Assembly: GCA_030646255.1 (NCBI GenBank)
Contig: JAUSNF010000014.1
Coordinates: forward strand, 1-25,500
Source of the DNA: Candidatus Burarchaeum sp.
Lineage (GTDB): Archaea > Micrarchaeota > Micrarchaeia > Burarchaeales > Burarchaeaceae
Direction of reading: 5' to 3'
Length of the DNA stretch: 25,500 nucleotides
In this document: positions 2,180 to 25,500 of the stretch, in pieces
How the letters are laid out: each line of letters begins with the position of its first letter
How positions within the stretch are numbered: the first letter of the stretch is position 1
Notes under the pieces: model-generated
Seen by the model: the letters and a program-made list of their open reading frames with translations, nothing else
Databases searched by the model: none
Told to the model about the DNA's origin: nothing
Made by a program: the position numbers and the translations under genes

Positions 2180-4927
2180 GTGGCCGAAATCACGAAAGAA
2201 GAAGCCAAACAAAAAGTAGCTGAACTACTTGAGGACTGGCGCCGCGAACATCCACAAGGCCCGCCTAGAACGTTTAATGAGGAGAATACTAAACAGTGGA
2301 TTGACGAACTATTTCACCGACTCGGCTGGAATCTTCGGACAGACTTGTCGAAAGAAGAAAGAAGTGGGAGGCGAAAGCGCGTCGATTACGCCTTCAAGAT
2401 AGAAGGTACTGTTCAGTTTCTGCTAGAGGCCAAGAAACCCAGCGAGAACCTTGATGATCATATCGATCAGGCAGTAGAATATGGCTACCAGAACAGCAAG
2501 AAATGGGTTGTTTTGACTAATTTTGAGGAAATACGGATATACAACTCAGAATACTGGAAGGAGGCAGAACAAACGAGGCGCCTTGTTACGCCGTTGAAGA
2601 TCACAGACTTCCTTACGCGCTTTGACGATCTGTGGCTTCTGAGCAAACCGGCCTTCGAAGAGCGACTAATTGAGAAAATAGCTGCACAGTATGGAAAGGC
2701 AAAGCCAAAGGAGCCGATAACTAAGATATTGTCTGATGATATGGAGAGGTGGAGGAAACTGCTTACGAAAGGCATAAGCGAGCACAGAAATCTTAACAAA
2801 ATACCTTCTGAGCCAGAGCAGGCAGAGGAATACATAGATGAAATGGTGCAGCGCATTCTTGATAGGATTTTGTTCATTCGTGTTGCAGAGGATCGGGGGA
2901 TTGAAGAACCAGTACTGGAGAACGCGCTAAGGAATTGGCAAGTAGACAAAAGCAAACCGCTGTCTGAATATCTGCGCCATGTTTTTAGAAAGATGGACGA
3001 CATTTATAACAGCGGCATTTTCCGAGAGCATGAGTCTGAGAAGCTAACCATAGATAATGAGAGTTACAGGCAAATCATAGATGAAAGTTACAAGAGCCCC
3101 ACTGGCCTGAAATACAATTTTGACGCGATTGATGCAGACATACTTGGATGTGTTTATGAGCAATATCTGAGCATTCTACTCAAAAAGACAGCTAAACGCA
3201 CGTCCTTGAAGGCGAGCAAAGGAAAAAGAAAGGAACAGGGAATCTACTACACGCCCACGTACATTGTAGATTACATAGTCAAAAACGCCCTTGGCGAAAT
3301 GCTGAAAGACAAGAAGCCGGAGGAAGTAGCGAGGCTGAAGGTGCTGGATCCTACTTGTGGCTCTGGTTCGTTTTTGATAAAAGCGTTTGACGAGATTAAG
3401 AGCTACTACAAGAACCAAAAGGGTCAGCAGAAGTTGAATGTGGACTCTCAAATACTTACACAGAATATTTACGGTGTAGATTTGGACTCAAAGGCGGTTG
3501 AAATAGCACGGCTCAATCTGCTTCTGAAGGCAGCTGAAACCAAACATAAATTGCCTGAATTAAACAATAATCTCAAGCAAGGAAATAGTTTTATTGAAAG
3601 TGAAGCTATCGCCGGAGACAAAGCGTTCAAATGGGAAAAACAATTTGCCAGTGTGTTTACAGATGGCCGCTTTGATGTAATTATTGGCAATCCACCCTAT
3701 GTTCACCAAAAAGGCGAGAAAGACGCTCCGAAAATTTCTTATTTGGAACGAGAATACTACCGCCAAAACTACACTTCAGTATATTCAAACGAAGTTAAAA
3801 CTAGAGGTGGGATAAAACTAAACTTGTTTGTGCCATATGTGGAACGAACAATAAGTCTTCTGAAGCCTATGGGTTTTCTCGGTTTCATAGTTCACAAAAA
3901 CGTTCTGAAAGTTGAATCATATAAACTACTTAGAAAATATATACTCGACAACTGCAGCATAGAACAAATAGTGGATTTGGGGGCTGGCGTTTTTTCAGAG
4001 GTAACTGGAGAAACCGTAATAATGATTCTAAAAAAGGAACCGAATTCTTCAAAGAGAAATGGCCACGAAATAAAGATAAGATATGGCCTTACGAATCCTG
4101 CCGATCTTCTTAACAATAAAGGCAAGACGACGCACCTAAAGCAAGAAAATTTTCAGCATTCTGTTGACCATATGTTTGCAATATATGTTGATGAGCGGGT
4201 AGAGTCGTTGAAAAATAAGCTATCAGTTAAATCGAAAAAATTAGACGAAGTAGCTAGAATAGTGTCATTTGGGCTTAACACCAAAGACAATAAAAAATAT
4301 CTTTCATTTGAAAAGTTAAACGGCGCTTACAAGCCCGTTGTGCTTGGCAGAGATGTTGGAAAATACGTCCTTAGAACACGAAACCGATTCGTGCTTTACG
4401 AAAGCAAAGTATTGGATAGAGTTGGAGATTTGGAGGCATTTAATAGCCCAGAAAAACTAATTTTTCAGAGAATAGGTTCTGGACTTATTGGAGTTTATGA
4501 TGACGAAAGATTCTATTGTTTTAACTCCACAAATATGATTCTCCCAAAACAAACTATTTTACAAAATCAAATTAAGCTAAAATATTTGCTAGGAATTTTG
4601 AATTCCAAATTAATGAACTATTACTATCGGGCTGTTTTCTCTACAGAATCAAGCCTTACAGTTAATGTAACGCAAGGATACCTTAGTCAACTACCAATAA
4701 AAATGGTCTCTGAACAAGAACAAGAACCAGTCATAAAGCTGGTTGACAAAATACTCGCCCTTAATCGCCGGCTCTTTGAGATCGGTAGCAAGAAAACAGA
4801 CGAGCGGGCGGAGGTCGAGGCAGAGATACAAAAAAGCGACGCAGAGATAGATGATCTTGTCTACAAACTTTATGGCCTTACGGAAGAAGAAAGGAAAATG
4901 GTTGAAAAGAACACTACTTCGGATTAA
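2180..4927 (+). CDS. Type IIL/IIG restriction-modification fusion enzyme (MmeI/Eco57I-like). It has an N-terminal PD-(D/E)xK nuclease, a gamma-class N6-adenine methyltransferase and a TaqI_C-like target-recognition domain.
   Basis: The 915-aa protein is close to MmeI in length (919 aa). Its N-terminus has D...EAK ('VDYAFK...LLEAKKP'). It has the 'YYTPTYIV' (HYT-like) motif, SAM motif I 'VLDPTCGSGSFL', and catalytic motif IV 'IIGNPPYV'. The C-terminal 'LLGILNSKLMNYYYRAVF' is TaqI_C-like. The gene is visibly AT-richer than the flanking genes. Confidence 0.8.
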   Translation: MAEITKEEAKQKVAELLEDWRREHPQGPPRTFNEENTKQWIDELFHRLGWNLRTDLSKEERSGRRKRVDYAFKIEGTVQFLLEAKKPSENLDDHIDQAVEYGYQNSKKWVVLTNFEEIRIYNSEYWKEAEQTRRLVTPLKITDFLTRFDDLWLLSKPAFEERLIEKIAAQYGKAKPKEPITKILSDDMERWRKLLTKGISEHRNLNKIPSEPEQAEEYIDEMVQRILDRILFIRVAEDRGIEEPVLENALRNWQVDKSKPLSEYLRHVFRKMDDIYNSGIFREHESEKLTIDNESYRQIIDESYKSPTGLKYNFDAIDADILGCVYEQYLSILLKKTAKRTSLKASKGKRKEQGIYYTPTYIVDYIVKNALGEMLKDKKPEEVARLKVLDPTCGSGSFLIKAFDEIKSYYKNQKGQQKLNVDSQILTQNIYGVDLDSKAVEIARLNLLLKAAETKHKLPELNNNLKQGNSFIESEAIAGDKAFKWEKQFASVFTDGRFDVIIGNPPYVHQKGEKDAPKISYLEREYYRQNYTSVYSNEVKTRGGIKLNLFVPYVERTISLLKPMGFLGFIVHKNVLKVESYKLLRKYILDNCSIEQIVDLGAGVFSEVTGETVIMILKKEPNSSKRNGHEIKIRYGLTNPADLLNNKGKTTHLKQENFQHSVDHMFAIYVDERVESLKNKLSVKSKKLDEVARIVSFGLNTKDNKKYLSFEKLNGAYKPVVLGRDVGKYVLRTRNRFVLYESKVLDRVGDLEAFNSPEKLIFQRIGSGLIGVYDDERFYCFNSTNMILPKQTILQNQIKLKYLLGILNSKLMNYYYRAVFSTESSLTVNVTQGYLSQLPIKMVSEQEQEPVIKLVDKILALNRRLFEIGSKKTDERAEVEAEIQKSDAEIDDLVYKLYGLTEEERKMVEKNTTSD

Positions 4928-5765
4928 GAAAGTGCTTTTCGATGTGAATTATTTGTGTTTTCGGAATGACAAGCTCCGTAGGATGAGCCGTCAAGTTGTC
5001 AGGTAATCCTTTCGTAGCATCTACATAAAAAGAGCGTAGAATAATCTCTGTTTTCGTTTCAGTTCTAAGATATCCGATGTACTTTCTGCGAGTAGTTATA
5101 ACCTCATATATGCAGAAGTCGGGAGATAGGAGGAGGGTAATCGCACCGTAATCATAACTAAGTGATACAATTAGTAAGAGTATCGGTGCGCTGAAGAAAA
5201 ATAAAGCCAGAAGTTGTGAGCAGCCATAAAGTGCGCAGTTGTCAGAGAACTTAAGCATAAAAATAAAACAGAAACCTACAAATCCAGAATAGGCAAGAAC
5301 ATTTATGATGAAATAGACTAGTTGATAGAAAAGAACGTTTGGACGCGTATGATTATTCAAGAAGCCAATAATGTCTAAATCAGAAACTTGTTTAAATGCA
5401 GGCAAATCACTGAACTTAGCTTTTAGCTGGCTTTTCATTGATCTCTTGAACTGTTTATCATAAAGAAATCGAAATAGCTGAGCTTGGTTTGTAAATTCCA
5501 AATTACTTTTTTCTTCATACTTAAAGCATACATAATTCTTTGCAGTAAATAGAAGGAGAGTAATGAGACCCAATACACTGACTACCCAAAGAGAATTATA
5601 ATGAGTCTCCAACAAACTAAAAGATAAAAGAAAAATTAAGAACGAGAAAAACAAGGGAACTATCAGAAATGTGAGAACATTCTGACCATATTTCTTTAAA
5701 GCATTGAAACCTTTAGGCGAATATGAAGAAAGACTGTTTAAAAATGCAGATGAAACATCTGGCAT
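4914..5765 (-). CDS. Polytopic membrane protein of unknown function with about 5 to 6 predicted TM helices. It is AT-rich and convergent with the RM gene, overlapping it by 14 bp.
   Basis: Long hydrophobic stretches include 'VLTFLIVPLFFSFLIFLLSFSLL', 'LWVVSVLGLITLLLF', 'VLFYQLVYFIINVLAYSGFVGFCFIFML' and 'LLALFFFSAPILLLIVSL'. Its codon and GC usage matches the neighbouring RM gene, not the GC-rich flanks. Confidence 0.5.
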   Translation of the reverse strand: MPDVSSAFLNSLSSYSPKGFNALKKYGQNVLTFLIVPLFFSFLIFLLSFSLLETHYNSLWVVSVLGLITLLLFTAKNYVCFKYEEKSNLEFTNQAQLFRFLYDKQFKRSMKSQLKAKFSDLPAFKQVSDLDIIGFLNNHTRPNVLFYQLVYFIINVLAYSGFVGFCFIFMLKFSDNCALYGCSQLLALFFFSAPILLLIVSLSYDYGAITLLLSPDFCIYEVITTRRKYIGYLRTETKTEIILRSFYVDATKGLPDNLTAHPTELVIPKTQIIHIEKHFLNPK

Positions 5766-5796: not shown

Positions 5797-6753
5797 TTAC
5801 ACTCTCCTTTCATTCATCCTTCCCATCCCGGGCCTTCTCGAGAAGCCGGAGTTTCCGCCGGGTCTCGGCGAACCGGTCGGGCCGGACGGGCCGGATGAAC
5901 CGGCGGGGCGGGAGGAAATGGGCGGACGGACTGGAGCGGGCTTGACGGGCGCATCCTGAACGGCCTTGAAGCGAGCTTCGAACTGTTCCTTCAGCTTCGC
6001 GCCTATGGGATTGTGCGTGAAGGCATCGGCCCTGGCGCAGATGACCAGCTTGGTGGACAGCGCACGCGCAATCTTCCCCCGCATGTGCTTGGGCGACATC
6101 GAGATGGAGGCGTGCTGGAATATCAAGCCGTGCTTGGGCGGGTTGGTGCCCTTCTTCAGGTGCTTGAAGAGCGCCTTCTCAGCCCCGAGCACTTGCAGTG
6201 TGGAGGCGGGCATCATGGCCAGCTTGCGCAGAGAGCCTGCGTGCGCTATGAGCTTGGCGGCCAGCTCAGGCCCTGCTAGTAATGAGAGGTTGGGAGCTAT
6301 TTCATTGGCCAGGGAAGCCTGGTATTCCTCGAGCGAGGTGCGGTAGGCATAGAGGTCCTCGAGCTTGTGCGCAAGTTTGGTCATCTCGGCCAGGTCGGCA
6401 GTGCTGAGCTTTGCGCCTATGCTCGTCTTTGCCTTTGACTCCAGCTCCCGCGCCTTCTGCTCCCCTATTATTGGGGCGAGGTCGGATGCCTGTAAATCTT
6501 CACGGTTGATGAGCTGCACCAGCTTGGCAAAGGTGGGGGGCTCGGCTACGCGGAGCTCCGGGAAGTAGACTGCGTACCATTCGGTAAGGGTTTCATAGAG
6601 TAAGTTGGATGCCCTGTTCACCTCGAAGATTGCCTTCACGGTGTGCGAGAGGAGCAGGTCGCGCGCAGCGTGCGCTTCCCTCAGCATTGCCTTGGTCTCT
6701 TCCAGGAAGTCGCGCTTCTTGGCGCGGGGCCTATTCTCCATGCGGTTGTCCAT
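5797..6753 (-). CDS. nop5: Nop5/Nop56/Prp31-family protein (NOSIC plus Nop domain). It is a short form lacking the N-terminal fibrillarin-binding domain, with a Pro/Gly/Ser-rich C-terminal tail.
   Basis: 'LTEWYAVYFPEL' is the NOSIC hallmark and is followed by a Nop-domain core ('LLAGPELAAKLIAHAGSLRKLAMMPASTLQVLGAEKALFKHL'). The protein starts directly at the NOSIC region at about residue 55. A 'TTTAAAA' TATA lies about 27 nt upstream on the minus strand. Confidence 0.75.
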   Translation of the reverse strand: MDNRMENRPRAKKRDFLEETKAMLREAHAARDLLLSHTVKAIFEVNRASNLLYETLTEWYAVYFPELRVAEPPTFAKLVQLINREDLQASDLAPIIGEQKARELESKAKTSIGAKLSTADLAEMTKLAHKLEDLYAYRTSLEEYQASLANEIAPNLSLLAGPELAAKLIAHAGSLRKLAMMPASTLQVLGAEKALFKHLKKGTNPPKHGLIFQHASISMSPKHMRGKIARALSTKLVICARADAFTHNPIGAKLKEQFEARFKAVQDAPVKPAPVRPPISSRPAGSSGPSGPTGSPRPGGNSGFSRRPGMGRMNERRV

Positions 6754-7929: not shown

Positions 7930-7949
7930 AGGGTGGGGAGCGGGTGACT
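7930..7949. repeat. Left copy of a perfect 20-bp inverted repeat (AGGGTGGGGAGCGGGTGACT) flanking the wHTH-MNT gene.
   Basis: The reverse complement, AGTCACCCGCTCCCCACCCT, occurs at 8537-8556. It was checked base by base. Twenty perfect base pairs would not occur by chance in 25 kb. Confidence 0.85.
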
Positions 7950-8487
7950 ATTTGAGCTGCCTGGTTTTCTTGCCTTTCAGGAATGAAAGGAGCTCGGTGC
8001 GGGAGGTGAAGAGAAGGGGCACGAGCTTGAGGCGCGTGCGCTCGTGGAAGGAGAGAATGAGGGGCTCGGGAGAGTAGGTTTTGGGTGCAAGGAAGGCGAG
8101 GTCGATGTCGCTCTCGGGCTTCTCCTCCCCGCGCGCAGTGCTGCCGAAGAGGTGGGCCTCCTTTATTTCTTTCTCGTTTGCAAGGAGGCGCTTGAGCGTT
8201 GGGAGGCTTACTTGGTGGGAGGAAGGAAAGGAGATGAGTTTGTTAAGACGTGAGAAGAGGGGGCTTTTGCGCAGCTCAATGACGCGCGCCCTGCCTATAG
8301 TGCTTACATCTATCAGGCCGGCACGCCGCCAGAGCTCGACTGCACGCCAGGTTGATGCAAAAGGCACTTTCGCAGTGAGCGAGAGCTCGCGTATAGTGAA
8401 TTTGCGGTTCGGGAAGCGGCGCAGGGTCAGGAGGAGCTCCTGGCTGCCCTTGAAGCGCACAAGGTCTACGAGGTTCATATGATCCAC
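7948..8487 (-). CDS. Winged-HTH plus minimal nucleotidyltransferase (MNT) protein, the putative antitoxin/regulator of the HEPN protein.
   Basis: 'HLFGSTARGEEKPESDIDLAFL' is the GS-x(9-13)-DxD NTase motif. The N-terminal 'FTIRELSLTAKVPFASTWRAVELWRRAGLI' is wHTH-like. The start is GTG at 8487 or ATG at 8478. The TAG stop at 7948-7950 lies inside the left 20-bp inverted repeat. Confidence 0.75.
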   Translation of the reverse strand: MDHMNLVDLVRFKGSQELLLTLRRFPNRKFTIRELSLTAKVPFASTWRAVELWRRAGLIDVSTIGRARVIELRKSPLFSRLNKLISFPSSHQVSLPTLKRLLANEKEIKEAHLFGSTARGEEKPESDIDLAFLAPKTYSPEPLILSFHERTRLKLVPLLFTSRTELLSFLKGKKTRQLK

Positions 8488-8922: not shown

Positions 8923-9168
8923 ATGACTTATACGACTATTCAAGTGGAGAAGGAAACGCGGGAGAAGCTGGCGGACCTGAAGGAGTACAATAGGGAGACT
9001 TATGATGAGATTATCAGGAGGCTGGTGAAGGTGTTTGAAGTTGTGAGGGATGAAGAAGGGGAGCTGACAGAGGAAACTAGGAAGGCAATTGAGGAGGGGC
9101 TGAGGCAAGCTGATGGAAAGAAAGGCATGACCACAAAGCAGCTCCTGAAGAAACTTGGAGTGGAATGA
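8923..9168 (+). CDS. relB: RelB/CopG-like antitoxin, partner of the downstream RelE.
   Basis: The protein is small and acidic ('TIQVEKETREKLADLKEYNRETYDEIIRRLV'). A GGTGG lies 5 nt upstream of the ATG at 8923, and the listed ORF start at 8914 is an upstream GTG. The stop overlaps the RelE start within ATGA. A TATA 'TATTTATAT' is at 8882-8890. Confidence 0.6.
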   Translation: MTYTTIQVEKETREKLADLKEYNRETYDEIIRRLVKVFEVVRDEEGELTEETRKAIEEGLRQADGKKGMTTKQLLKKLGVE

Positions 9169-9422
9169 TGCCTTATGAACTTCTTTGGATGCCGAAGGCG
9201 CTGGATTCACTTAAGGGGCTAGATAATGAGAATATCAAGGGAATAACGAGAAAACTAGAAGAAGCAAGGGAATTTCCAAGGCATTTCTGTTCGAAGCTGA
9301 CAAACTCGCCGGCCAGCACAGTACGAATTGGAGATTACAGGATTTACGCCAGAGTAAAGGAGGCGGAGAAGATTATCGAAGTCGTGTACGTGGAGCACAG
9401 GAAGAAGGCGTACAAACCATAA
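9165..9422 (+). CDS. relE: RelE/ParE-family toxin.
   Basis: The 85-aa protein has 'YELLWMPKALDSLKGLD' and 'VRIGDYRIYARVKEAEKIIEVVYVEHRKKAY', the canonical RelE beta-sheet core and C-terminus. It overlaps the antitoxin by 4 nt. Confidence 0.8.
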   Translation: MMPYELLWMPKALDSLKGLDNENIKGITRKLEEAREFPRHFCSKLTNSPASTVRIGDYRIYARVKEAEKIIEVVYVEHRKKAYKP

Positions 9423-16945: not shown

Positions 16946-19900
16946 TTACATAAATGCTTCCAGGTTGAACTGCTTCTCTTTTTCTTCTTCGGGCCTGAAG
17001 ACTGCGCCGATGCTCTGCTCCAAAAGAAGGATGCGCTGGCTCAGGTATGCTGGCAGGTGATAGCGGGCGATGAGCTTTTTCGAGAGCTCCAGGTATTTGG
17101 ATACGCTGCCCTTGCTTATTGTCAGCAAAAGCTTGCCGCCGCAGCCTTCGCGCGTGCATTTGCCCGAGAGCGGCACGCGCCTGTATTTTGTGTTGCATGC
17201 CACGCACCGGAATTCCTGGCGCGAGAAGCGGCTGAGGTTGCCGTACAAATCTGGCAGGAAGTGCGATGTGATTACGCGGCTCGCGGCATCGGCCGCATCC
17301 ACTGCGCGTATCTTGTCGCACAGGTTGAACTGCGCCTCAACCTTCTCAGCCATGCTGCCTATGAGCACATAGGCTGAGCGGAGCGGGGCATCGTGTATTG
17401 AAGAGGCGTGGTGTGTGAAGTTGAGGTTGTAGAATTGTTCGGGCTTGCCGAGCCTGCTTCTTATCTGCTCCACTTCGACCTCGCCGGGCGACTTGCCGGC
17501 CAGCGCGCCCTGGTAGAAGGAGAGCGGGAAGCCGGAGACGCATTCCATGGCGTGCACTTCATCATCAACTTCCTTTGGATCCAGTATGACTGTGAGAACT
17601 ATGGGCGCATCCATCGTGCCGCCGCGCGAGGCTGGAAGGAAGGAGGGCGAAAAGTTCAGCAAAGCGTCCATCAAAAGCATGCACGAATCTTCGTCTCCAT
17701 CGCAGTTTCTTCGACGTGCGCTTATCAAATATGGGTGCGCGTAGCCCACGTTGGCTTTCGTGAAGCCGATTATGCGCGAGAGCACGCCGCACGAGGTGTG
17801 GGGCGAGAGGCCTACGCCAAGGTGGCCGACCAAATCATTGCGGTCCTTTATGTTGTAGAAGGGCTCGACTCCGTAGACTTTGGAGAGCAGGTCGTCAATG
17901 AACTGGGCAGTGCGCGCAAAGTAGTCGCCTCCGTTCTCGCTCAGCAGCAAGTCCTGGGGCATGAGCTCCAGAAGTTGCGTGTCGCTCGTGAGCGGCTTGC
18001 CCTCGTAATCGTGCGTGTAGCTGAGTTCCTTCAGCTTCTCAACGGGCACGCCGACCTCGCGCGGGGTGAAGTGCGTGAGCACCATGTCGGTCGCATCGAA
18101 CCGCACAGTGCCGTCCTTATAAACTGAAATCTTGTGCTTTGCGCGCAGAATGCCTTTCTCAAGCCGCTCGGGAATTTTAGAGGCGCTCATCATGCCCTTC
18201 ACGCCCTTTAGCTCAGCAGGCTCGAATCCGCAGGTTGCTATTGCCTGCTTGAGCAGCGCCTTCACATCCAAGGGCCTTTCATCAGCGCGCAGGGTTTGCG
18301 CGCCGCAGGAGCATGTTTCGCGCGTGCCCGTCTTGCCGCACTTGGCGCAGACGCGCTCCTCGCTCGTGTCCGAACCACATATCGAGCATTTGATGTAGGG
18401 CGTGAGCTCGTTGCACTTCGGGCACTTGCGGCGCGCGAGCTCGACACTGGGCTTGCGCGCATAATTTGTGTCCTTGTAGATTTTCGAGATGCTGCGCGTC
18501 TTGCCCCCGGCCTCGCCTATCGGGAAGAGCACATGGGGCGCGGGCTTCATCTCGCGCTGCTTTGCCTTTTCGGGCCTGCCCATGCGCGCGCCTATGTAGG
18601 TGGGTGCGTAGGGCATTATTTTGATGCCCGCGAGCGCGTTTATGATGTCGAGCACTGGCAGCTTTTCATCGAATTTCTTGTTGAAATCCTCGAGCGAGAG
18701 CGAGCGGCCCTTCAGCAGGCCCATGCTATGCATGAGCGCGAGCGCATTCTCGGCATCCAGCACAATGTCGCCCACCTGCACCTCGTGCGGAATGCATAGG
18801 TCCTCGAGGACCAATTTGGCCGGCGTGGCCTGCACGCGGAGTTCCTTGAGCGTGAAGAAATCATACTTGAGCTTCCCGCTGCCCGCGAGCCAGTCCGCGA
18901 GCTCGGCCAGCTGCGCGCCCGTTATGTCGTGCCAGCGGAAGGTGTAGGCAGGGTGCAGGGGCACGCCGTGCTTTTCACTTATTTTTATTGCATCCGCGGC
19001 TGTCGGCGTTTTCGAAGGAACTTGCGCGCCCTTTTCCTTGAGCTCGAGCGCCCACCATTCCTCGCACCAGGCGCCAGGCAGGAGGGGTTGGTTGGATTTT
19101 GCGAAATCGCCGTATGCTATCAGTATGTCGCCGAGCGCGATCAGGGACTCGACGTCTTTTTTGACTGCGAGTGCCTCTGCATACGTGCTTATCTTGCGCA
19201 CCGAGCCGTTTGTGAGTTTTACAACCGGGCCGTCAATAGAGTCGCAGGCCGCAGCCACGCAGCCCTTGCCCGGCCGTTCGACTTTCATCTGCGTGCCTAT
19301 TGCAATGAAGTCGTCAAGAAGAGTCATGGTTGCCGGATGAATGGCCTTTCCCGCTATGCCTGTTGTGCGGCACCTTCCGTAGCGCAGCCTGAAGCCGCCT
19401 TTTCTGCCTGGGTAGCATAGGATTGGCCTGCCTGCTGCAACATCGTCCAGGTAGAGGTCCGCGCCGCGGCCCGCGTTCTTGCCTTCGCGCTTGCCCACCT
19501 TCACAATGTCCTCGAGCCAGCCCCAGTCGAGAGCAATTTTCTTTGTGAATTTCAGCACTTTTGCAGCCTTCTGGCACGTCTCGCTTATCACGAGGCACAT
19601 GCCTCCGCGCACGCGGTCCCCTTCCATTCTTTCAAGGCCCTTGTGCACAGATACTTCGAGCCTTTTCTCGGTCGGGTCTCCTGTAATCATGATGGGGCAG
19701 TTGCGCACGATTGTCTCGATTTCAGCATCAGTCGGCATGTACTGCAGCCTGATGGCGCGCGCATCGTAGAGGTTGATTTCCTCGACGTAGCGCTCGACCT
19801 CGCTGTCCGTGGGCCTGAAGTCGCTGATGTTGAACTTGCGCCGCGCAATGTCGCCGATTACCACGCTGAGGGCCGCGACTGTGCCGCCGGCTGAGCGGAT

Positions 19901-20332
19901 GGGGCCGGAGAAGTACATGGCCAAATAGTTGGAGCCGTCGGGATTCTCGCGTATTCTTACCTTCGTAATTCCTTCGGTGGGCGCGACCAGCACGCCTTCT
20001 GTGAGAATTGCAACTGCTGTCCTGATGGCCTGCTCAATGAGCTTCTCAGGCTTGCGCTCTTCCTCAGTCTTCGCATATTTGCCATCGAGCACTTCCTTCG
20101 CAACCTCGTAGGCAATCATTTCGAGAGGCATGTCCTTGTGCACGCGTATGCCCGCTGCCACGCCGGGAGGGCCGACAATTCCCTGCACGCGCTCAGCCAC
20201 GTCCCGCGCAGGCAGGATTTCCACTTCGGCGCTCGGGTCAAGGCCCTTCGTGCGCGCCTTGATGGCCTCTATGTAGGCCTTCTCGAAATTGCGCTGGAGC
20301 GATTCATGGTATGCGGGAATGTCGTTTGGCAT
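16946..20332 (-). CDS. polC: DNA polymerase II (PolD) large catalytic subunit DP2, with no intein.
   Basis: The sequence is collinear with Pyrococcus DP2 from 'MPNDIPAYHESLQRNFEKAYIEAIKARTKGLDPSAEVEI' to the C-terminal Zn finger 'CVACNTKYRRVPLSGKCTREGCGGKL'. The start was reassigned to the ATG at 20332. The ORF-track TTG at 20356 adds 8 non-conserved residues. Confidence 0.92.
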   Translation of the reverse strand: MPNDIPAYHESLQRNFEKAYIEAIKARTKGLDPSAEVEILPARDVAERVQGIVGPPGVAAGIRVHKDMPLEMIAYEVAKEVLDGKYAKTEEERKPEKLIEQAIRTAVAILTEGVLVAPTEGITKVRIRENPDGSNYLAMYFSGPIRSAGGTVAALSVVIGDIARRKFNISDFRPTDSEVERYVEEINLYDARAIRLQYMPTDAEIETIVRNCPIMITGDPTEKRLEVSVHKGLERMEGDRVRGGMCLVISETCQKAAKVLKFTKKIALDWGWLEDIVKVGKREGKNAGRGADLYLDDVAAGRPILCYPGRKGGFRLRYGRCRTTGIAGKAIHPATMTLLDDFIAIGTQMKVERPGKGCVAAACDSIDGPVVKLTNGSVRKISTYAEALAVKKDVESLIALGDILIAYGDFAKSNQPLLPGAWCEEWWALELKEKGAQVPSKTPTAADAIKISEKHGVPLHPAYTFRWHDITGAQLAELADWLAGSGKLKYDFFTLKELRVQATPAKLVLEDLCIPHEVQVGDIVLDAENALALMHSMGLLKGRSLSLEDFNKKFDEKLPVLDIINALAGIKIMPYAPTYIGARMGRPEKAKQREMKPAPHVLFPIGEAGGKTRSISKIYKDTNYARKPSVELARRKCPKCNELTPYIKCSICGSDTSEERVCAKCGKTGTRETCSCGAQTLRADERPLDVKALLKQAIATCGFEPAELKGVKGMMSASKIPERLEKGILRAKHKISVYKDGTVRFDATDMVLTHFTPREVGVPVEKLKELSYTHDYEGKPLTSDTQLLELMPQDLLLSENGGDYFARTAQFIDDLLSKVYGVEPFYNIKDRNDLVGHLGVGLSPHTSCGVLSRIIGFTKANVGYAHPYLISARRRNCDGDEDSCMLLMDALLNFSPSFLPASRGGTMDAPIVLTVILDPKEVDDEVHAMECVSGFPLSFYQGALAGKSPGEVEVEQIRSRLGKPEQFYNLNFTHHASSIHDAPLRSAYVLIGSMAEKVEAQFNLCDKIRAVDAADAASRVITSHFLPDLYGNLSRFSRQEFRCVACNTKYRRVPLSGKCTREGCGGKLLLTISKGSVSKYLELSKKLIARYHLPAYLSQRILLLEQSIGAVFRPEEEKEKQFNLEAFM

Positions 20333-20359
20333 TTTGTTCACCGGTATCAATATCAAAAT

Positions 20360-21877
20360 TCACGAGCCGCCTTCGCGGAAGTTCACGAGCTCAAGGCGCG
20401 CATAGCGCGCGTGGTAGATGGGCAGGATGCACGGGCTCGGAATGTGGCCCTGCTGCCTTTGATAGTCTGTTCGGTCCTGCCATGTGCCTGAGTTGAGCAC
20501 CGCGGTGCCGTGGTAGTTCGTGTAGCCGTTCTTGTGTATGTGGCCCATCACGAGAATGTCGGGCACCTCGCCTATGAGCATGAAGTCTTTTTTCTCCGGC
20601 ACGATAGGATTCTCGCCGTAGATGGGTGAGAGGTTGCGCCGCTTCAGGAGCTCGGCCATGGGCTTCTCGGGCTGTGAATAGCTCATGCCGGGCATCGAGG
20701 CTATTATGGAGTCGAGCGATGTGCCGTGGTAGGAGAGGATGCGGAGCTCCTCGATATTAAGAGTGGAAGGCGAGCTCGTGAAGTGCATGTTGCCGCGTGA
20801 CTCACTGCATATCTGCTTCCGCACTTCATCGCTGAAAAGCGGCTGGGGCTCGGCCCTGCGCACCGCATCATGGTTGCCCGGCGCGACCACCACTTCGATG
20901 TAGTCGGGCACGTCTTCCATGAGCTTTCCGAAGAGCGCGTACTGCTCGTAAATGTCTTTTACTACAAGCTCGCGCTCCTGCGTCGGGTAGATGCCCACGC
21001 CATCCACGATGTCTCCTGAAATTACGATGTACTTAATCTTGCCCGCCAGCTCGCGCTCGCGCTCTGTCTTGCAGTCGCCGTTCAGCCAGCGGAGCATGGA
21101 ACGGAACTGGTCCTCGAGAAAGTGGCGGCTGGCCGCGTGTATGTCGGACATGAATGCGATGGAAAGGTCGCGCTCGGCCATCTTGGGCTCGTGTATCGGA
21201 ACGTCGGGCCAGAGGAGCGAGTCTGCGAAGATGAAGGGCGCTGAGACCGAGCCATCGAAGCCCACTACCTCGTCGAGCACGAGCCCGCCCGCGTCTGCGA
21301 AGAGCGCGCGGTTCGAGTCCCTGTTTGTAACGAGCACTTTTACAGTGCCCGTATCATCCTCAATGTCAATCAGTAAATTTCCATTTTTTGTTATGTGCCT
21401 GTTGTTCACTATGCCCGCCACGCGCACCTTCGAGCCTTTCACCATGCCCATCGCGGATGCGATTGACTGGATTGAGTTCTCGCCCGGCCGGGTGTAAAGG
21501 ATTGAGCGCGTGCGCTTGAACCTGTCGTTGAAATATTCCACGAAGTTGTCGAGCGTGCCTAGCCTGGCCTCGGTGGCGCTGAACTCGTTCTCGTGCTGTA
21601 TGCTGAACTCGGAATCATGCTCGGCTGCCAGGGGCTTGAAGTCAGGGGAGCGGTAGACCTCGGCGGGCATTGGGATTTTGTTTTCTTCCGGCTGCTGCTG
21701 CGCGTATTTTTGCACCAGCTCGCCCGTGATTATGAATGCGTCCTTCTCGCCCTCCACGAGCTTGCGCGCTACGCTCACGCTGTCGTCAAGCTTCTCAAGC
21801 ATCTGCGCCGCATCTGCGCCGAGCCGCATGCCCGCATCGCCGATTATCCGCAGTACCTCTTCGTTTACCAACACTAA
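20360..21877 (-). CDS. polB: DNA polymerase II (PolD) small subunit DP1 (Mre11-like calcineurin phosphoesterase, 3'-5' exonuclease).
   Basis: The phosphoesterase motifs are 'FMSDIHAAS', 'GDIVDGVG' and 'APGNHD'. The N-terminus 'LVNEEVLRIIGDAGMRLGADAAQML' aligns with the Pyrococcus DP1 N-terminus 'MDELVKALERAGYLLTPSAYYLL'. The probable start is therefore the GTG at 21877, preceded by GAGG. The longer ORF to 21982 would contain its own TATA box (TTTAAAT at 21928-21934). Confidence 0.85.
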   Translation of the reverse strand, partial: LVLVNEEVLRIIGDAGMRLGADAAQMLEKLDDSVSVARKLVEGEKDAFIITGELVQKYAQQQPEENKIPMPAEVYRSPDFKPLAAEHDSEFSIQHENEFSATEARLGTLDNFVEYFNDRFKRTRSILYTRPGENSIQSIASAMGMVKGSKVRVAGIVNNRHITKNGNLLIDIEDDTGTVKVLVTNRDSNRALFADAGGLVLDEVVGFDGSVSAPFIFADSLLWPDVPIHEPKMAERDLSIAFMSDIHAASRHFLEDQFRSMLRWLNGDCKTERERELAGKIKYIVISGDIVDGVGIYPTQERELVVKDIYEQYALFGKLMEDVPDYIEVVVAPGNHDAVRRAEPQPLFSDEVRKQICSESRGNMHFTSSPSTLNIEELRILSYHGTSLDSIIASMPGMSYSQPEKPMAELLKRRNLSPIYGENPIVPEKKDFMLIGEVPDILVMGHIHKNGYTNYHGTAVLNSGTWQDRTDYQRQQGHIPSPCILPIYHARYARLELVNFREGGS

Positions 21878-21927
21878 CGCCTCGACCTTGGACTTGCCGC
21901 TACTCCCGGCAAAATTTGGGCCGCAAA

Positions 21928-21934
21928 GATTTAA
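21928..21934 (-). promoter_or_regulatory. TATA box (TTTAAAT on the minus strand) for the DP1-DP2 operon. It lies inside the over-extended DP1 ORF.
   Basis: It is about 50 nt upstream of the reassigned GTG start. This spacing fits a TSS about 25 nt downstream of the TATA plus a leader of about 27 nt carrying a GAGG Shine-Dalgarno. Confidence 0.45.
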
Positions 21935-22006
21935 ACATGTGATTGCTTGCTGCCGTTTGCGCCGTATGCGCTGCGCTAGCATCTGAAAAAATGCACCTCG
22001 CCGGCT

Positions 22007-22261
22007 TCACTCGCCCCTTATCTGCTCGAGCGCGCTCACAATGGTCCATATCTGCGTGCGCGCGTGCATGGGCATGTTGATGTCCTCGCTCACTTCATTG
22101 AGCAGGTAGACTGCCGAACTGGCGCGCACTACGGGCTCGTCCTTGGTCTGCAGCTTTAGCCTGGCATCAGAAACAGCTTTGCGGACGTTCTTCGGAACGC
22201 TCGAGTCCTCGACGAGCATTTCCATAAGTTTTACAATCTGCGCTATTTTTTCCTCGACCAT
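22007..22261 (-). CDS. UPF0147-family small conserved archaeal protein.
   Basis: The 84-aa protein has the pattern 'LVEDSSVPKNVRKAVSDA...LNEVSEDINMPMHARTQIWTIVSALEQI'. This matches the UPF0147 signature (ed.svP.nvR..a......L.....D.N.P...Rt.iw.i.s.LE). It lies 24 nt upstream of the DP1 ORF. Confidence 0.6.
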   Translation of the reverse strand: MVEEKIAQIVKLMEMLVEDSSVPKNVRKAVSDARLKLQTKDEPVVRASSAVYLLNEVSEDINMPMHARTQIWTIVSALEQIRGE

Positions 22262-22325
22262 ATAATCGCCTACAGGTGAAATGCATTGTTGGTGTTAGTG
22301 CATGTGGGGGTTTAAAAGGATTTAA

Positions 22326-22476
22326 CGGGCCCGGCGGGATTGACAGCCTTGCTGGCAAATCTTGTCGGCTTGCCGACAAGGCTTTTGAACCCGCGACCAT
22401 CAGCTTAGAAGGCTTCCGGGATCGAAACTACATTGGTTTCAATCATGCCGCGCTATCCAGGCTGCGCCACGGGCCC
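22326..22476 (-). tRNA. tRNA-Arg (anticodon UCU) gene with two non-canonical introns. One is 32 nt at position 28/29 or 29/30 in the anticodon stem. The other is 44 nt at 58/59 or 59/60 in the T-loop. No CCA is encoded.
   Basis: The minus strand reads as follows. The 5' portion is GGGCCCG-UG-GCGC-AGCCUGGAUA-GCGC-G-GC. Intron 1 follows (22446..22415, with an internal 8-bp hairpin GAUUGAAA/UUUCGAUC). Next comes AGC-CUUCUAA-GCUGA-UGGUC-GCGGG-UUCAA. Intron 2 follows (22384..22341, with hairpin CUUGUCGGC-aa-GCCGACAAG). The 3' portion is AU-CCCGC-CGGGCCC-G. The spliced product is a 75-nt cloverleaf with a perfect 7-bp acceptor stem, a 4-bp D stem with the Arg-typical AGCCUGGAUA loop, a T arm GCGGG-UUCAAAU-CCCGC, and an anticodon loop CUUCUAA with U33/A37. 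A TATA 'TTATTAAAT' lies about 25 nt upstream. Confidence 0.7.
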
Positions 22477-22543
22477 GTGGATAGAATAGGATGAATATGA
22501 TTTAATAACCTCGTTGCTATGGCATATGCAGAGGGGTGGGAGA

Positions 22544-23452
22544 ATGGCATGGGAGATTGGACTTATAGCGGCGCTCGTAGTTCTGGCGGTTCTCGCGCTG
22601 ATGAGCATAAAGATTGTGCGGCCGACCGAGAGGGCGTTGGTTGAGCGGTTTGGAAAGTATCATCGTTTTGCAAATCCGGGCATAAACTTCATCATTCCGC
22701 TCATAGACAGCATAGTTCGGGTTAATGTGACTGAGAGGATGGTGGATGCTGATAGGCAGGAGATTATTACAAAAGATAATTTGAACGCGCTTGTGGACGC
22801 GCAGATTTATTTCCGCGTGAATTCCGACGAGGAGAGCGTGAAGGCCTCGCAGTATAACGTGCAGAATTACGAGTGGCAGATTGTGAACCTTGCGAGGACT
22901 ACGCTGAGGAATATCATAGGCAACCTGACGCTCACTAGGGCGAACAGCGACAGGAATGCGATAAACATGCAGCTGCTTCAGGAGCTGCAGGCGGAAGTGT
23001 CGGGCGTGAACAAGGAAAGGACAGGGCGGGGATGGGGGCTTTCAATAGTCAGGACTGAATTGAAGGAGATTGAGCCGCCCAAGGATGTGCAGCAGACGAT
23101 GAACGAGGTTGTGAAGGCCGAGAACACGCGGATTGCGGCTACCGACCTTGCCACTGCTACCGAGACAAAGGCAGATGGCGAGAGGAGGGCGGCGATCAAG
23201 GTTGCTGAGGGCCGTGCGAAAGGTGTTGAGATAGAGGCTGATGCCAAGGCTAAGGCTATTGAAGCAGTCAATACGGCTGCGCAGAAATATTTCGTTGGCA
23301 ATGCACAGCTGCTGAAAAAGTATGAAGTTTTGCAGGCCAGCCTTGAGCATAATACGAAGTTTGTGATTACTGAGAAGGGCATTTCGCCTGTGATTGTATT
23401 TGGGGATGGCAAGGAAATCATAACGCTGCCGCGCGACATGATGAAGAAGTAG
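22544..23452 (+). CDS. SPFH/band-7 (stomatin/prohibitin-like) membrane protein.
   Basis: An N-terminal TM ('IGLIAALVVLAVLALMSI') is followed by 'VRPTERALVERFGKYHRFANPGINFIIPLIDSIVRVNVTE...ITKDNLNALVDAQIYFRV', which is a canonical SPFH domain, and an Ala/Glu-rich coiled-coil tail. The start was reassigned to the ATG at 22544, directly after the strong RBS GAGGGGTGGGAG. The listed TTG at 22514 is upstream of that RBS. Confidence 0.85.
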   Translation: MAWEIGLIAALVVLAVLALMSIKIVRPTERALVERFGKYHRFANPGINFIIPLIDSIVRVNVTERMVDADRQEIITKDNLNALVDAQIYFRVNSDEESVKASQYNVQNYEWQIVNLARTTLRNIIGNLTLTRANSDRNAINMQLLQELQAEVSGVNKERTGRGWGLSIVRTELKEIEPPKDVQQTMNEVVKAENTRIAATDLATATETKADGERRAAIKVAEGRAKGVEIEADAKAKAIEAVNTAAQKYFVGNAQLLKKYEVLQASLEHNTKFVITEKGISPVIVFGDGKEIITLPRDMMKK

Positions 23453-23501
23453 GCAGGATACTGCGGCTGCCTACGTCGCATGCACAGGCCTAAAGACGCG
23501 C

Positions 23502-23813
23502 CTATTTCGCCAGCTTGTTCAGATCAGTTTGCACTATGTATTGCGCTATGGGAAACAGCACGAAGAACGCAAGGAAGGTCATAAGCCCGGCATTCTCGTC
23601 CTTTTTCACGTACTTGGCATAGCCCTCGCAGTACTTCCACATCCAGTACCAATTGACTATTGGGATTAGAAACAGGATGGTTGTTGGAATTTTGGCGCCC
23701 AGGCGGTTCATCTCATTTTTAGTCTGCCATGCCCAGTAGAGATAATATAGTCCCAGCGTGATAAAGGACAGCAATATTACTATTATAGGCTCTCGTCTCT
23801 TGATGTCGGCCAT
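23502..23813 (-). CDS. Small two-TM membrane protein with a GLYYLYW motif (DUF4234-like).
   Basis: The 103-aa protein has 'IIVILLSFITLGLYYLYWAW' and a second hydrophobic segment 'LMTFLAFFVLFPIAQYIV'. Confidence 0.45.
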   Translation of the reverse strand: MADIKRREPIIVILLSFITLGLYYLYWAWQTKNEMNRLGAKIPTTILFLIPIVNWYWMWKYCEGYAKYVKKDENAGLMTFLAFFVLFPIAQYIVQTDLNKLAK

Positions 23814-23891
23814 TTAGAAACACCTCGTTTTTTAGATAATTACATGCCGGGTTTTTATATATGAGGTTCGACAAACGTAGAACGTGCTTGT

Positions 23892-25493
23892 TTACATCCT
23901 CTCGGGTGCCTCGATGCCGAGCAGGTTCAAGCCGTTGCGCAGGACTAGCTGCGTTGCCTTCACTAGCTTCACGCGCGCCTCCATCATGCGCGGCTCGGCC
24001 TTCAGAACCGGGCAGGCATTGTAGAATCTTGCGAACTGCGCCGAGAGCTCCAGTAAATATTCTGCCATAAGGTGCGGCCTCTGCTCCATGGCGGATTGTA
24101 GCACACGGGAGGGGAAGCGGGCGAGCATGACTGCAAGGTTGCGCTCTTCTGAGTCTGCCAGCAGGCTGATGTCGCCGAAGACTATTTCGCCCGTCTTCTC
24201 GAGTATGCGGCTGCACCGGGCATGTGAATATTGTATGTAGGGTGCGGAATCGCCCTCGAAGTTGAGCGCCTCCTCCCACCTGAATATAATTTTCTTCTCG
24301 GGCGTTGTGCGCAGGAGGCCGAAGCGCACCGCGCCTATGCCCACTGCCTGCGCTATTTTTGTCTTCTCTTCTTCAGCCATGTCCGTGAAGCGCGTGCGTA
24401 TTTCGGTGAGCGCGCGCGCTTCCGCTTCATCTATTACCTCGTCCGCACTATAACCGAGCCAGGAGCCTTCGCGGCCTGAGAATTTCTTGTCGGGCAGGCC
24501 TGCATGCTCATATGAGAGGTGCAAGTAGTTCTTGGCCTGCTCGCTGAAGCCCATGGATTCCATTAGAAGCGAGAGAACCCTTTGCGGGTATTTCTGCTCG
24601 ACGCCTATTACATTGATTGCAACTGCGGCAGAAGGGAGGCGCGTGCTGGTGCCGCGCGGCGAGGAGGTGTAGAGCATTGTGCCATTAGGCTGCTTAAGGA
24701 ATTCCGAGAACTGGAGCTGCGCATCTACAAGGCCGAACTTCCAGAGCGCGAAGGCCAAATCTTTTGCTGCATAGGTGGCTGTGCCGTCGGACCTGAGTAG
24801 CACTTTGTCAGGACTTTCCATCTGCGCGAACTCTTTGCGGTCTGCGAGCTTTGCAACTAAACATCCTGCATTCTTGCCCTCGCTCTCGAATTCGACCGCG
24901 CCGCTTTCCTTCGCCGCATCCATGGTCTTCTCAAGTAAGTGTGCATGCACAAGGTCGCTTTCCCACACTAGTAAATCGTGGTAGATGCCGAGCCTGAATG
25001 CCGTGTCGTATTGTGCAGTAACGCACTGGGAGCAGAGGTTGCGCGCTGTTTTTGGTATGTCTCCTTCGCCCTTTTCCATGAGCTCGACAATCTCGCGCAC
25101 CTGCTTCTCGACTGCAGGGTCCGCAATGAGCTTTGCCACTTCAACGTACTGGCGGCCCAGCCATTGGTCGGCCTTCATGTCCATCTTGTTGCTTAAGTTG
25201 AGGTAGCCCCAGACGCTTTGGGCCACCTGCAGGCCGAGGTCGTCTATATAATCTAGGCGCTTGACGTCGAAGCCTGCGCAAGAAAGTATGCGCGCTACGC
25301 TGTCGCCAAGGACTGCATTGCGCAAATGGCCGATGTGCCAGGGCTTGTTTGGATTGACTGAAGGGAATTCGATGTAAACGACCTTGCCGTTAGCTTCCCG
25401 CGAGCCATAGGCCTTGCCCTGGTCCACGGTTGAGTCGATTGCAAACTTTAGGAACTGCGTGCTGAGCCTGAAGTTTATGTATGGCCCCAGCAC
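23892..25493 (-). CDS. argS: Arginyl-tRNA synthetase (class I), N-terminally truncated by the window edge.
   Basis: The HIGH motif is 'PWHIGHLRNAVLGD' and the KMSKS-equivalent region is present. The C-terminal DALR anticodon-binding domain is 'LAVMLARFPSRVLQSAMEQRPHLMAEYLLELSAQFARFYNACPVL'. The ORF is open to within 7 nt of the window end. Confidence 0.9.
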   Translation of the reverse strand: MLGPYINFRLSTQFLKFAIDSTVDQGKAYGSREANGKVVYIEFPSVNPNKPWHIGHLRNAVLGDSVARILSCAGFDVKRLDYIDDLGLQVAQSVWGYLNLSNKMDMKADQWLGRQYVEVAKLIADPAVEKQVREIVELMEKGEGDIPKTARNLCSQCVTAQYDTAFRLGIYHDLLVWESDLVHAHLLEKTMDAAKESGAVEFESEGKNAGCLVAKLADRKEFAQMESPDKVLLRSDGTATYAAKDLAFALWKFGLVDAQLQFSEFLKQPNGTMLYTSSPRGTSTRLPSAAVAINVIGVEQKYPQRVLSLLMESMGFSEQAKNYLHLSYEHAGLPDKKFSGREGSWLGYSADEVIDEAEARALTEIRTRFTDMAEEEKTKIAQAVGIGAVRFGLLRTTPEKKIIFRWEEALNFEGDSAPYIQYSHARCSRILEKTGEIVFGDISLLADSEERNLAVMLARFPSRVLQSAMEQRPHLMAEYLLELSAQFARFYNACPVLKAEPRMMEARVKLVKATQLVLRNGLNLLGIEAPERM

Positions 25494-25500
25494 CTGGCAG

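Follow-up and report, generated by a model that had tools for sequence, protein, structure and literature searches.

Intron-disrupted tRNA genes are already documented in Micrarchaeota: multi-intron tRNAs, introns at Sprinzl position 59/60 and a broad-specificity ε2 splicing endonuclease have all been published for this phylum (PMC3239211, PMC4033280). Positions 29/30 and 59/60 are among the known non-canonical intron sites, and ARMAN-1 and ARMAN-2 are among the multi-intron lineages (PMC4090602, PMC4033280). Two examples from ARMAN-2 (Candidatus Micrarchaeum acidiphilum; Fujishima et al. 2011, PMC3239211) are pre-tRNA-Cys(GCA), with a 13-nt intron at 59/60, and pre-tRNA-Pro(GGG), which is interrupted twice, at 53/54 and at 59/60. 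The EndA enzyme of ARMAN-2 has also been characterised (PMC3239211). In another part of the archaeal tree, the Thermoproteales (Crenarchaeota) have tRNAs with up to three introns, at sites that include 29/30 and 59/60, as summarised in two of these sources (PMC4090602, PMC4033280).

Here we describe a tRNA-Arg(UCU) gene in a 25,500-nt stretch of DNA, the whole of which is referred to as the window. We put the probability at roughly 90% that this is a functional gene of a Burarchaeum-related member of the Micrarchaeota, with two introns that are spliced enzymatically at relaxed bulge-helix-bulge (BHB) motifs. The gene has in common with the ARMAN-2 genes the phylum, a 59/60 site whose outer helix is the T stem, relaxed BHBs and more than one intron per gene, and in both cases the expected processing enzyme is an ε2 EndA. 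It differs from them in the tRNA concerned (Arg UCU) and in the order, which is Burarchaeales-like. A 13-36-nt intron at 59/60 is common to all tRNA-Arg(TCT) genes of the Micrarchaeum type (L001-L025, among them that of Ca. Micrarchaeum sp. A_DKE), whereas none of these 25 has the anticodon-stem intron found at 29/30 in the window. The central helix H of the 59/60 motif has 2/4 pairs in the window and mostly 4/4 in the Micrarchaeum-type genes.

Multi-intron tRNA genes of Thermoproteales were reportedly described by Sugahara in 2007/2008 and by Fujishima in 2010. These genes resemble that of the window in architecture, in the preferred non-canonical sites, in their relaxed BHBs and in signs that introns are gained, lost or transposed rapidly among close relatives. 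The window differs from them in its DPANN host with PolD genes and in the expected endonuclease, which is of the ε2 and not the (αβ)2 type. A preliminary description of this DNA had presented the multi-intron gene as a marker of lineage and of endonuclease specificity; as such it is confirmatory, such features being already published for Micrarchaeota (PMC3239211, PMC4033280). The gene is a further member of a documented class and not a new type, and our results leave the current picture of archaeal tRNA splicing unchanged.

Standard detectors miss the gene. ARAGORN found no tRNA in the whole raw window, its canonical-intron mode gave nothing useful on either the locus or the window, and Rfam at the gathering threshold gave no match there. 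A permissive Rfam scan of 22280-22520 returned noise only, in the form of chance miRNA-like matches on the hairpin of intron 2. The tRNA 5' and 3' ends that the preliminary description had located 151 nt apart on the minus strand (22476..22326) are present as it said, and its central proposal, a tRNA-Arg(UCU) gene split by two non-canonical introns, is upheld by splicing in silico, by the BHB geometry and by orthologues that lack one or both introns. Deletion of a 32-nt and a 44-nt segment leaves the 75-nt product that it had foreseen, which ARAGORN calls tRNA-Arg(tct) with a normal cloverleaf; such restoration of a canonical cloverleaf when the inserts are removed is characteristic of BHB tRNA introns. 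Neither the unspliced locus nor either singly spliced version received a correct ARAGORN call. The version with only intron 2 removed drew a tRNA-Ser call, which we discarded as spurious. In a loose split-tRNA scan of both window strands (acceptor stem, D arm and T stem, with at most 330 nt between the ends), this locus was the only candidate with a TTCAA T-loop.

The gene occupies 22326..22476 on the minus strand and comprises a 151-nt precursor body with three exons and two introns, without an encoded CCA. Precursor nucleotides are numbered from window position 22476 as nt 1. Read from 22476 towards 22326, the 5' end is GGGCCCG-T-G-GCGC-AGCCTGGATA-GCGC-G-GCA (acceptor 5' strand and D arm), followed by the 32-nt insert, GCCTTCTAAGCTGATGGTCGCGGGTTCAAA, the 44-nt insert and TCCCGCCGGGCCCG; the 3' end of the gene is ATCCCGC-CGGGCCC-G (T-stem 3' strand, acceptor 3' strand and discriminator). 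Exon 1 (22446..22476, minus strand, precursor nt 1-31) contains the acceptor 5' strand, U8, G9, the D arm, G26 and anticodon-stem positions 27-29. Intron 1 (22414..22445, minus strand, 32 nt, precursor nt 32-63) interrupts the anticodon stem at Sprinzl 29/30. Exon 2 (22384..22413, minus strand, precursor nt 64-93) covers positions 30-59, with the anticodon loop CU-UCU-AA, the variable loop, the 5' strand of the T stem and T-loop positions 54-59. Intron 2 (22340..22383, minus strand, 44 nt, precursor nt 94-137) lies in the T-loop at Sprinzl 59/60, and exon 3 (22326..22339, minus strand, precursor nt 138-151) contributes T60, the 3' strands of the T stem and acceptor stem and the discriminator G73. 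The intron lengths and the spliced product agree with the preliminary description; its boundaries do not, as the BHB rule moves both cuts 1 nt downstream (to 22445..22414 and 22383..22340). The 1-nt ambiguity that it had attributed to flanking A residues is real, and the mature sequence is the same either way.

The TCT anticodon (UCU, positions 34-36) lies at 22407..22409 on the minus strand in the ARAGORN cloverleaf. The anticodon loop has 7 nt, with U33 and a purine at 37, as befits a tRNA-Arg(UCU), and is invariant in all 26 distinct mature sequences of the comparative set introduced below. The identity elements recognised by ArgRS are A20 and C35. Both are present in the sequence as predicted determinants of recognition, with A at position 20 in the D-loop AGCCUGGAUA and C35 in the anticodon. 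AGA makes up 33 of the 291 Arg codons in the window's genes, and a tRNA with a UCU anticodon is therefore needed.

A putative archaeal promoter lies at 22501..22516 on the minus strand. It has a TATA-like TTATTAAA at -32..-25 (22508..22501). Just before this comes AACGAGG (22515..22509), which is rich in purines, and the element CAACGAGGTTATTAAA with its TATA at -32..-25 stands at the same distance upstream of the gene in the window, in contig L051 and in the Ca. Burarchaeum contig L146. The 3' trailer TTAAATCCTTTTAAA (22311..22325, minus strand) has an oligo-T run at 22317..22314 that is probably an archaeal termination signal; the TTTTAAA within the trailer could also serve as the TATA box of the downstream UPF0147 gene. 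A T-rich trailer is conserved in L051 and L146.

The splice junctions were placed with the archaeal rule that a 4-bp helix H lies between two 3-nt bulges, each of which is cut after its second nucleotide. The rule was derived from the canonical 37/38 case and checked on the 29 canonical introns of the comparative set, in which helix H is paired at 4/4 positions in 26 and at 3/4 in 3. For intron 1, helix H is GCGG/CCGG (G26-G29 with C58-G61) and is paired at 3/4 positions, the exception being a G26·G61 mismatch. It lies between the bulges CA^U and AA^G. The inner helix h' has 9 bp (22444..22436 with 22428..22420), and a regular outer helix is absent. Minimum-free-energy folding of the whole precursor, and of a local 43-mer, yields this BHB without any constraint. 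For intron 2, the 5-bp T stem serves as the outer helix h. Helix H, UUCA/UGUC (U54-A57 with UGUC), is paired at 2/4 positions and lies between the bulges AA^A and AA^U, and helix h' has 7 bp (22382..22376 with 22352..22346).

Both inserts fold into hairpins, as had been claimed: intron 1 has its 9-bp stem, and the T arm together with intron 2 folds with z = -5.8. The predicted BHB-like motifs are present at both junctions in relaxed form. When the introns were shuffled between unchanged exons, the probability of equal or better BHB geometry was about 2e-5 (intron 1) and 7e-4 (intron 2). The spacing is a correct 3-4-3 at both junctions, whereas neither has the strict hBHBh' form with a fully paired 4-bp H and helices on both sides. 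Accordingly, a strict search that required 4/4 H pairs found neither of them; a relaxed H in fixed register recovered both, and the cuts yield the mature sequence. Both motifs are weaker than those of relatives: H of intron 1 has a G·G mismatch where relatives have G-C or G·U, and H of intron 2 has 2/4 pairs where most relatives have 3 or 4. Inspection by eye also rejected a C/D-box sRNA inside the introns, which are too short and contain no C/D box pair.

The T-loop insert had been likened to a terminator on the plus strand, in which case the insert would be only partly intronic and the hairpin at 22341-22384, with its T-run, would be an intrinsic terminator or another regulatory hairpin. The plus strand does contain a 9-bp inverted repeat CTTGTCGGC/GCCGACAAG followed by GGCTTTTG. 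However, a consensus scan of both strands of 22200-22620 gave 0 terminator-like sites, and no plus-strand gene ends there: the real genes upstream here (UPF0147 and DP1) lie on the minus strand, and so no plus-strand transcript ends at this point. Moreover, the CTTG bases of the hairpin are used by BHB helix h' in the minimum-free-energy fold. Archaeal termination relies on oligo-T and not on bacterial-type hairpins, which we also count against this explanation. We regard it as most improbable and take the whole insert to be an intron of the tRNA gene.

Orthologous genes were collected in two ways. Species-representative genomes scanned with a 28-nt word from exon 2 gave 25 loci, nearly all labelled Ca. 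Micrarchaeota and including the complete genome of Ca. Micrarchaeum sp. A_DKE; the 28-mer is identical in all 25. Exons 1 and 2 are contiguous in 25/25 of them (no 29/30 intron), and 25/25 have an insert in the T-loop. Metagenomes were scanned with a 22-mer from exon 1. Many of the hits were bacterial tRNA-Pro(GGG), and the figures for Arg refer to the matches listed; among these, tRNA-Arg(TCT) genes with an identical exon 1 are either intron-free or have introns at 29/30, 37/38, 59/60 or combinations of these. The comparison with related archaeal tRNA-Arg(TCT) genes, which the preliminary description had suggested, thus covers at least 82 genes with 0, 1 or 2 introns. Each gives exactly 75 nt in a spliced alignment, and 26 of the mature sequences are distinct; because the genes were collected by patterns taken from the exons and were spliced with reference sequences as a guide, the procedure favours 75-nt products. 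Introns in the 82 genes lie at 19/20, 29/30, 37/38, 56/57 and 59/60, and every one of them fits the register of a 4-bp helix and 3-nt bulges.

The introns at 29/30 measure 15-32 nt and occur in at least 15 loci (the window, L051 and 13 more). Among the matches listed, 15/15 have GCGG as the 5' strand of H, CCGC, CCGT or CCGG as its 3' strand, and bulges CA^N and AA^G; in the 13 loci beyond the window and L051, H is GCGG/CCGC or GCGG/CCGT. Introns at 59/60 are 13-53 nt long and were found in more than 35 loci, all of them with the T stem as the outer helix, TTCA as the 5' strand of H and TGAA, TGGA, TGAC, TGTC or similar as its 3' strand. Of the 82 genes examined from the matches listed, those of the window and L051 alone combine introns at 29/30 and 59/60. 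Intron-free orthologues (L033, L062, L040 and others) define the junctions, and among orthologues the site is conserved while intron sequence and length vary, as is typical of BHB introns. The intron-free genes of L033 and L062 differ from the spliced product of the window at 3 nt, and two of these differences make up one compensatory pair of the T stem. Both genes reach 66 bits on the Rfam tRNA model (gathering score 29) and are called Arg(tct) by ARAGORN.

Over the 26 distinct mature sequences, 96% of the cells of the cloverleaf are paired, and 8 cloverleaf pairs have changes on both sides, compared with 0-2 in slid controls. The G27·A43 mismatch in the anticodon stem, for which confirmation had been advised, is real. 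Judged from this alignment, it is a conserved lineage trait and no error, because 27:43 is unpaired in 22 of the 26 mature sequences, those of intron-free genes included. The possibility that two tRNA-like halves lie together by chance, without forming a gene, has in its favour only the failure of the automatic detectors. The shuffle tests, the scan of the whole window, orthologues in more than 80 loci and the identical exons of L051, to which we turn now, all speak against it; the comparative data effectively refute it, and we give it next to no credence.

The sister contig L051 (Ga0209541_10150057, minus strand) is 88% identical to window positions 22013-24179, over 2.2 kb. The 75 exon nucleotides are identical (75/75; exon 1 31/31, exon 3 14/14), whereas the 5' and 3' flanks match at 144/150 and 137/150 positions. 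Intron 1 matches at 30/32 positions, with both changes in the hairpin loop. In L051 the place of intron 2 is taken by an unrelated 53-nt sequence, likewise at 59/60, whose 4-bp helix H (UUCA/UGAA) is fully paired; it lies about 94-146 nt into the tRNA gene (compare window 22340-22383). The two 59/60 introns point to a recent replacement of one by the other. Perfect exons combined with variable introns are, as a sequence pattern, the signature of a functional split gene.

These data also bear on a different explanation, that the locus is a decaying tRNA pseudogene whose two insertions are never removed and whose function is supplied by another copy elsewhere. A pseudogene would fit with the silence of the standard detectors and with the degeneration of both BHB motifs relative to those of relatives, and the window covers only 25.5 kb of a genome in which other copies may exist. 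Decay is difficult to reconcile with exons that remain 75/75 identical to L051 while the flanks have diverged by 4-9% and intron 2 has been replaced outright. Both insertions coincide exactly with recurrent intron sites and keep the correct BHB register, L051 and L146 have retained the promoter-like element as well as the trailer, and the locus fills the same syntenic slot as intact or intron-bearing orthologues. We therefore consider a pseudogene very unlikely and retain the reading of a functional, intron-bearing tRNA-Arg(UCU) gene.

L146 (Ca. Burarchaeum australiense, CABMJK010000014) contains the orthologous tRNA-Arg(TCT) in the same neighbourhood (ArgRS, SPFH, tRNA, UPF0147, DP1, DP2). 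Its mature tRNA is identical to that of the window at 73/75 positions, the difference being one compensatory pair. The 43-nt intron at 59/60 is homologous to intron 2 of the window, with the TTTGCCAGCAAGGCTG core common to both, and has 3/4 pairs in helix H compared with 2/4 in the window. Its inner hairpin, as read from the alignment, is CTTGCTGC/GCAGCAAG where the window has CTTGTCGGC/GCCGACAAG; several paired bases differ, and the hairpin is kept. Unlike the window, L146 has no intron at 29/30 and has instead a 113-nt D-loop intron at 19/20. The gene (L146:2406-2636, with introns of 113 nt at 19/20 and 43 nt at 59/60) was not found by ARAGORN or Rfam.

An invariant 8-mer, TTGCCAGC, lies within intron 2 of the window (22358..22351, minus strand), where it occurs once in the whole window. 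It is present in the 59/60 introns of six genes (the window, L146, L071, L105, L060 and L058), which belong to at least three lineages and have different T stems. In some of these genes it forms the 3' strand of the inner hairpin; in the window and in Burarchaeum little is left of the strand with which it would pair. The invariance could reflect common descent of the intron family or a sequence-specific role.

In all, five close relatives have four different intron sets in one orthologous tRNA-Arg(UCU) gene. By site, the window and L051 have introns at 29/30 and 59/60, Ca. Burarchaeum at 19/20 and 59/60, and L147 and L148, whose DP1 is 69-72% identical, have the canonical 37/38 intron only. 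A further contig, L149, with a DP1 that is 93% identical, ends short of the tRNA. Although the window and L051 are 91-96% identical in their flanks, an unrelated sequence has taken the place of the 59/60 intron; the family to which the 59/60 intron of the window belongs, with its TTGCCAGC core, reaches the more distant lineages L071, L105, L060 and L058. Such rapid turnover across close relatives is compatible with intron mobility, and we tentatively entertain the idea that tRNA introns in this clade of Micrarchaeota are actively mobile or exchangeable, which we regard as possible and not as probable. If it is true, DPANN archaea would be a second independent system, after the Thermoproteales, for the gain, replacement and transposition of BHB introns. 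The fast turnover in one orthologous gene is, to judge from the alignments, the more interesting by-product of this analysis, and the orthologue set documents it at species level in a DPANN lineage.

How the gene would be expressed can be proposed in outline. The TATA element about 25-32 nt upstream would probably direct synthesis of a precursor with the 151-nt body, in which each intron would pair with adjacent exon sequence to form a relaxed BHB motif. The archaeal splicing endonuclease would make its cuts behind the second of the three nucleotides in each bulge. Relaxed motifs at non-canonical positions can be cleaved by enzymes of the (αβ)2 or ε2 type, and a three-unit ε2 EndA is the one expected in this phylum. 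An RNA ligase would then join the three exons into the 75-nt tRNA, and CCA would be added after splicing, as the gene does not encode it. Transcription, the actual cleavage and ligation, and the type of endonuclease in this genome are the parts of this scheme that we infer; the anatomy of the sequence, the BHB geometry, the conservation of the exons and the differing intron sets of orthologues are observed directly. For the archaeal splicing endonuclease of broad specificity, the locus would supply two more natural substrates of the relaxed kind: an intron at 29/30 that recruits D-stem nucleotides into its helix H, and one at 59/60 with two H pairs only.

Homologues of EndA were sought with fragments of the ARMAN-2 enzyme recovered from PDB 4fz2 alignments. 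There were 1415 matches; the best 120 of these 1415 are about 370-405 aa long, with 384-391 aa as the commonest size, and align over the full length of the three-unit query, and the named homologues among the best 120 of 1415 are largely from Micrarchaeota. In the window and the 149 collected loci, tblastn with the ARMAN-2 fragments gave only single-unit EndA-like matches, at unrelated loci, and thus no EndA in the window or in the collected loci of this clade. By analogy with its phylum, we expect this genome to encode a three-unit ε2 EndA.

The genes that adjoin the tRNA are archaeal and encode two PolD subunits (DP1 and DP2), UPF0147, ArgRS and a protein of the SPFH type. Nop5 and a class II aminoacyl-tRNA synthetase are encoded further off. 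The DP1 of the window is 79% identical to that of Ca. Burarchaeum australiense and about 50% identical to those of many Micrarchaeota MAGs. On the strength of these DP1 homologues, the lineage of the window is assigned to the Micrarchaeota (DPANN), close to Ca. Burarchaeum. To our knowledge, Thermoproteales have no PolD. A Thermoproteales or other crenarchaeal host was rejected because PolD genes lie next to the tRNA. Ca. Burarchaeum belongs to the order Burarchaeales (PMC8561730).

The ArgRS gene (23892-25493, minus strand) is separated from the tRNA by about 1.4 kb, as the preliminary description had noted. An apparent interruption of ArgRS near the window end was dismissed, since the gene runs off the window. 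The gene order ArgRS, (SPFH), tRNA-Arg(UCU), UPF0147, DP1, DP2 (window 16946-25500) is conserved in L146, L147, L033, L089 and L144, so that across the clade the tRNA adjoins its cognate synthetase. In several relatives a tRNA-Pro(CGG) is found nearby as well, no more than about 1-2 kb away; the equivalent place in the window would lie past its end at 25500.

Some further features of the window concern its protein-coding genes. The longest ORF of DP1 (20360-21982, minus strand, 540 aa) is probably about 37 aa too long at its N-terminus; DP1 homologues have about 500 aa and cover 93% of the 540-aa ORF. There was no exact-sequence protein match to the DP1 and UPF0147 of the window, in the case of DP1 probably because the longest-ORF start differs from the called start. 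In archaea, fibrillarin often follows Nop5. The 283-aa ORF directly downstream of Nop5 (ORF at 4914-5765, minus strand; Nop5 at 5797-6753) has no Pfam match and is not fibrillarin. The window also contains a stretch of defence or addiction genes, with an MmeI/Eco57I-like fused restriction-modification enzyme of 915 aa at 2180-4927 (plus strand), a nucleotidyltransferase-domain protein and a ParE-family toxin (7948-8487 on the minus strand and 9165-9422 on the plus strand).

In the comparative set, a contig labelled Methanothrix sp. (L002) and five labelled Ca. Marsarchaeota (L003, L006, L014, L015 and L020) contain Micrarchaeum-type tRNA-Arg(TCT) genes. In L002, L014 and L015 the upstream sequence, too, is almost the same as in Ca. 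Micrarchaeum sp. A_DKE. On this evidence, the six contigs seem to be doubtfully labelled or binned.

The failure of the detectors extends to other members of the set: the orthologues of Ca. Burarchaeum and Ca. Micrarchaeum sp. A_DKE are likewise missed by ARAGORN and the Rfam tRNA model, and one orthologue is miscalled. As published, the Ca. Burarchaeum MAG has only 18 tRNAs at an estimated completeness of 96.8%, with introns unmentioned (PMC8561730). Where tRNA counts serve as a quality criterion for MAGs, the tRNA set of Micrarchaeota is probably underestimated, because standard tools such as ARAGORN and Rfam miss genes of this kind. Short non-canonical introns may also lead to wrong isotype calls, besides missed genes. 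The tRNA-Arg(TCT) gene at L095:7401-7493, which has a 17-nt intron at 29/30, is called tRNA-Cys(gca) by ARAGORN, and its Rfam tRNA score falls from 66 to 44 bits with the intron in place.
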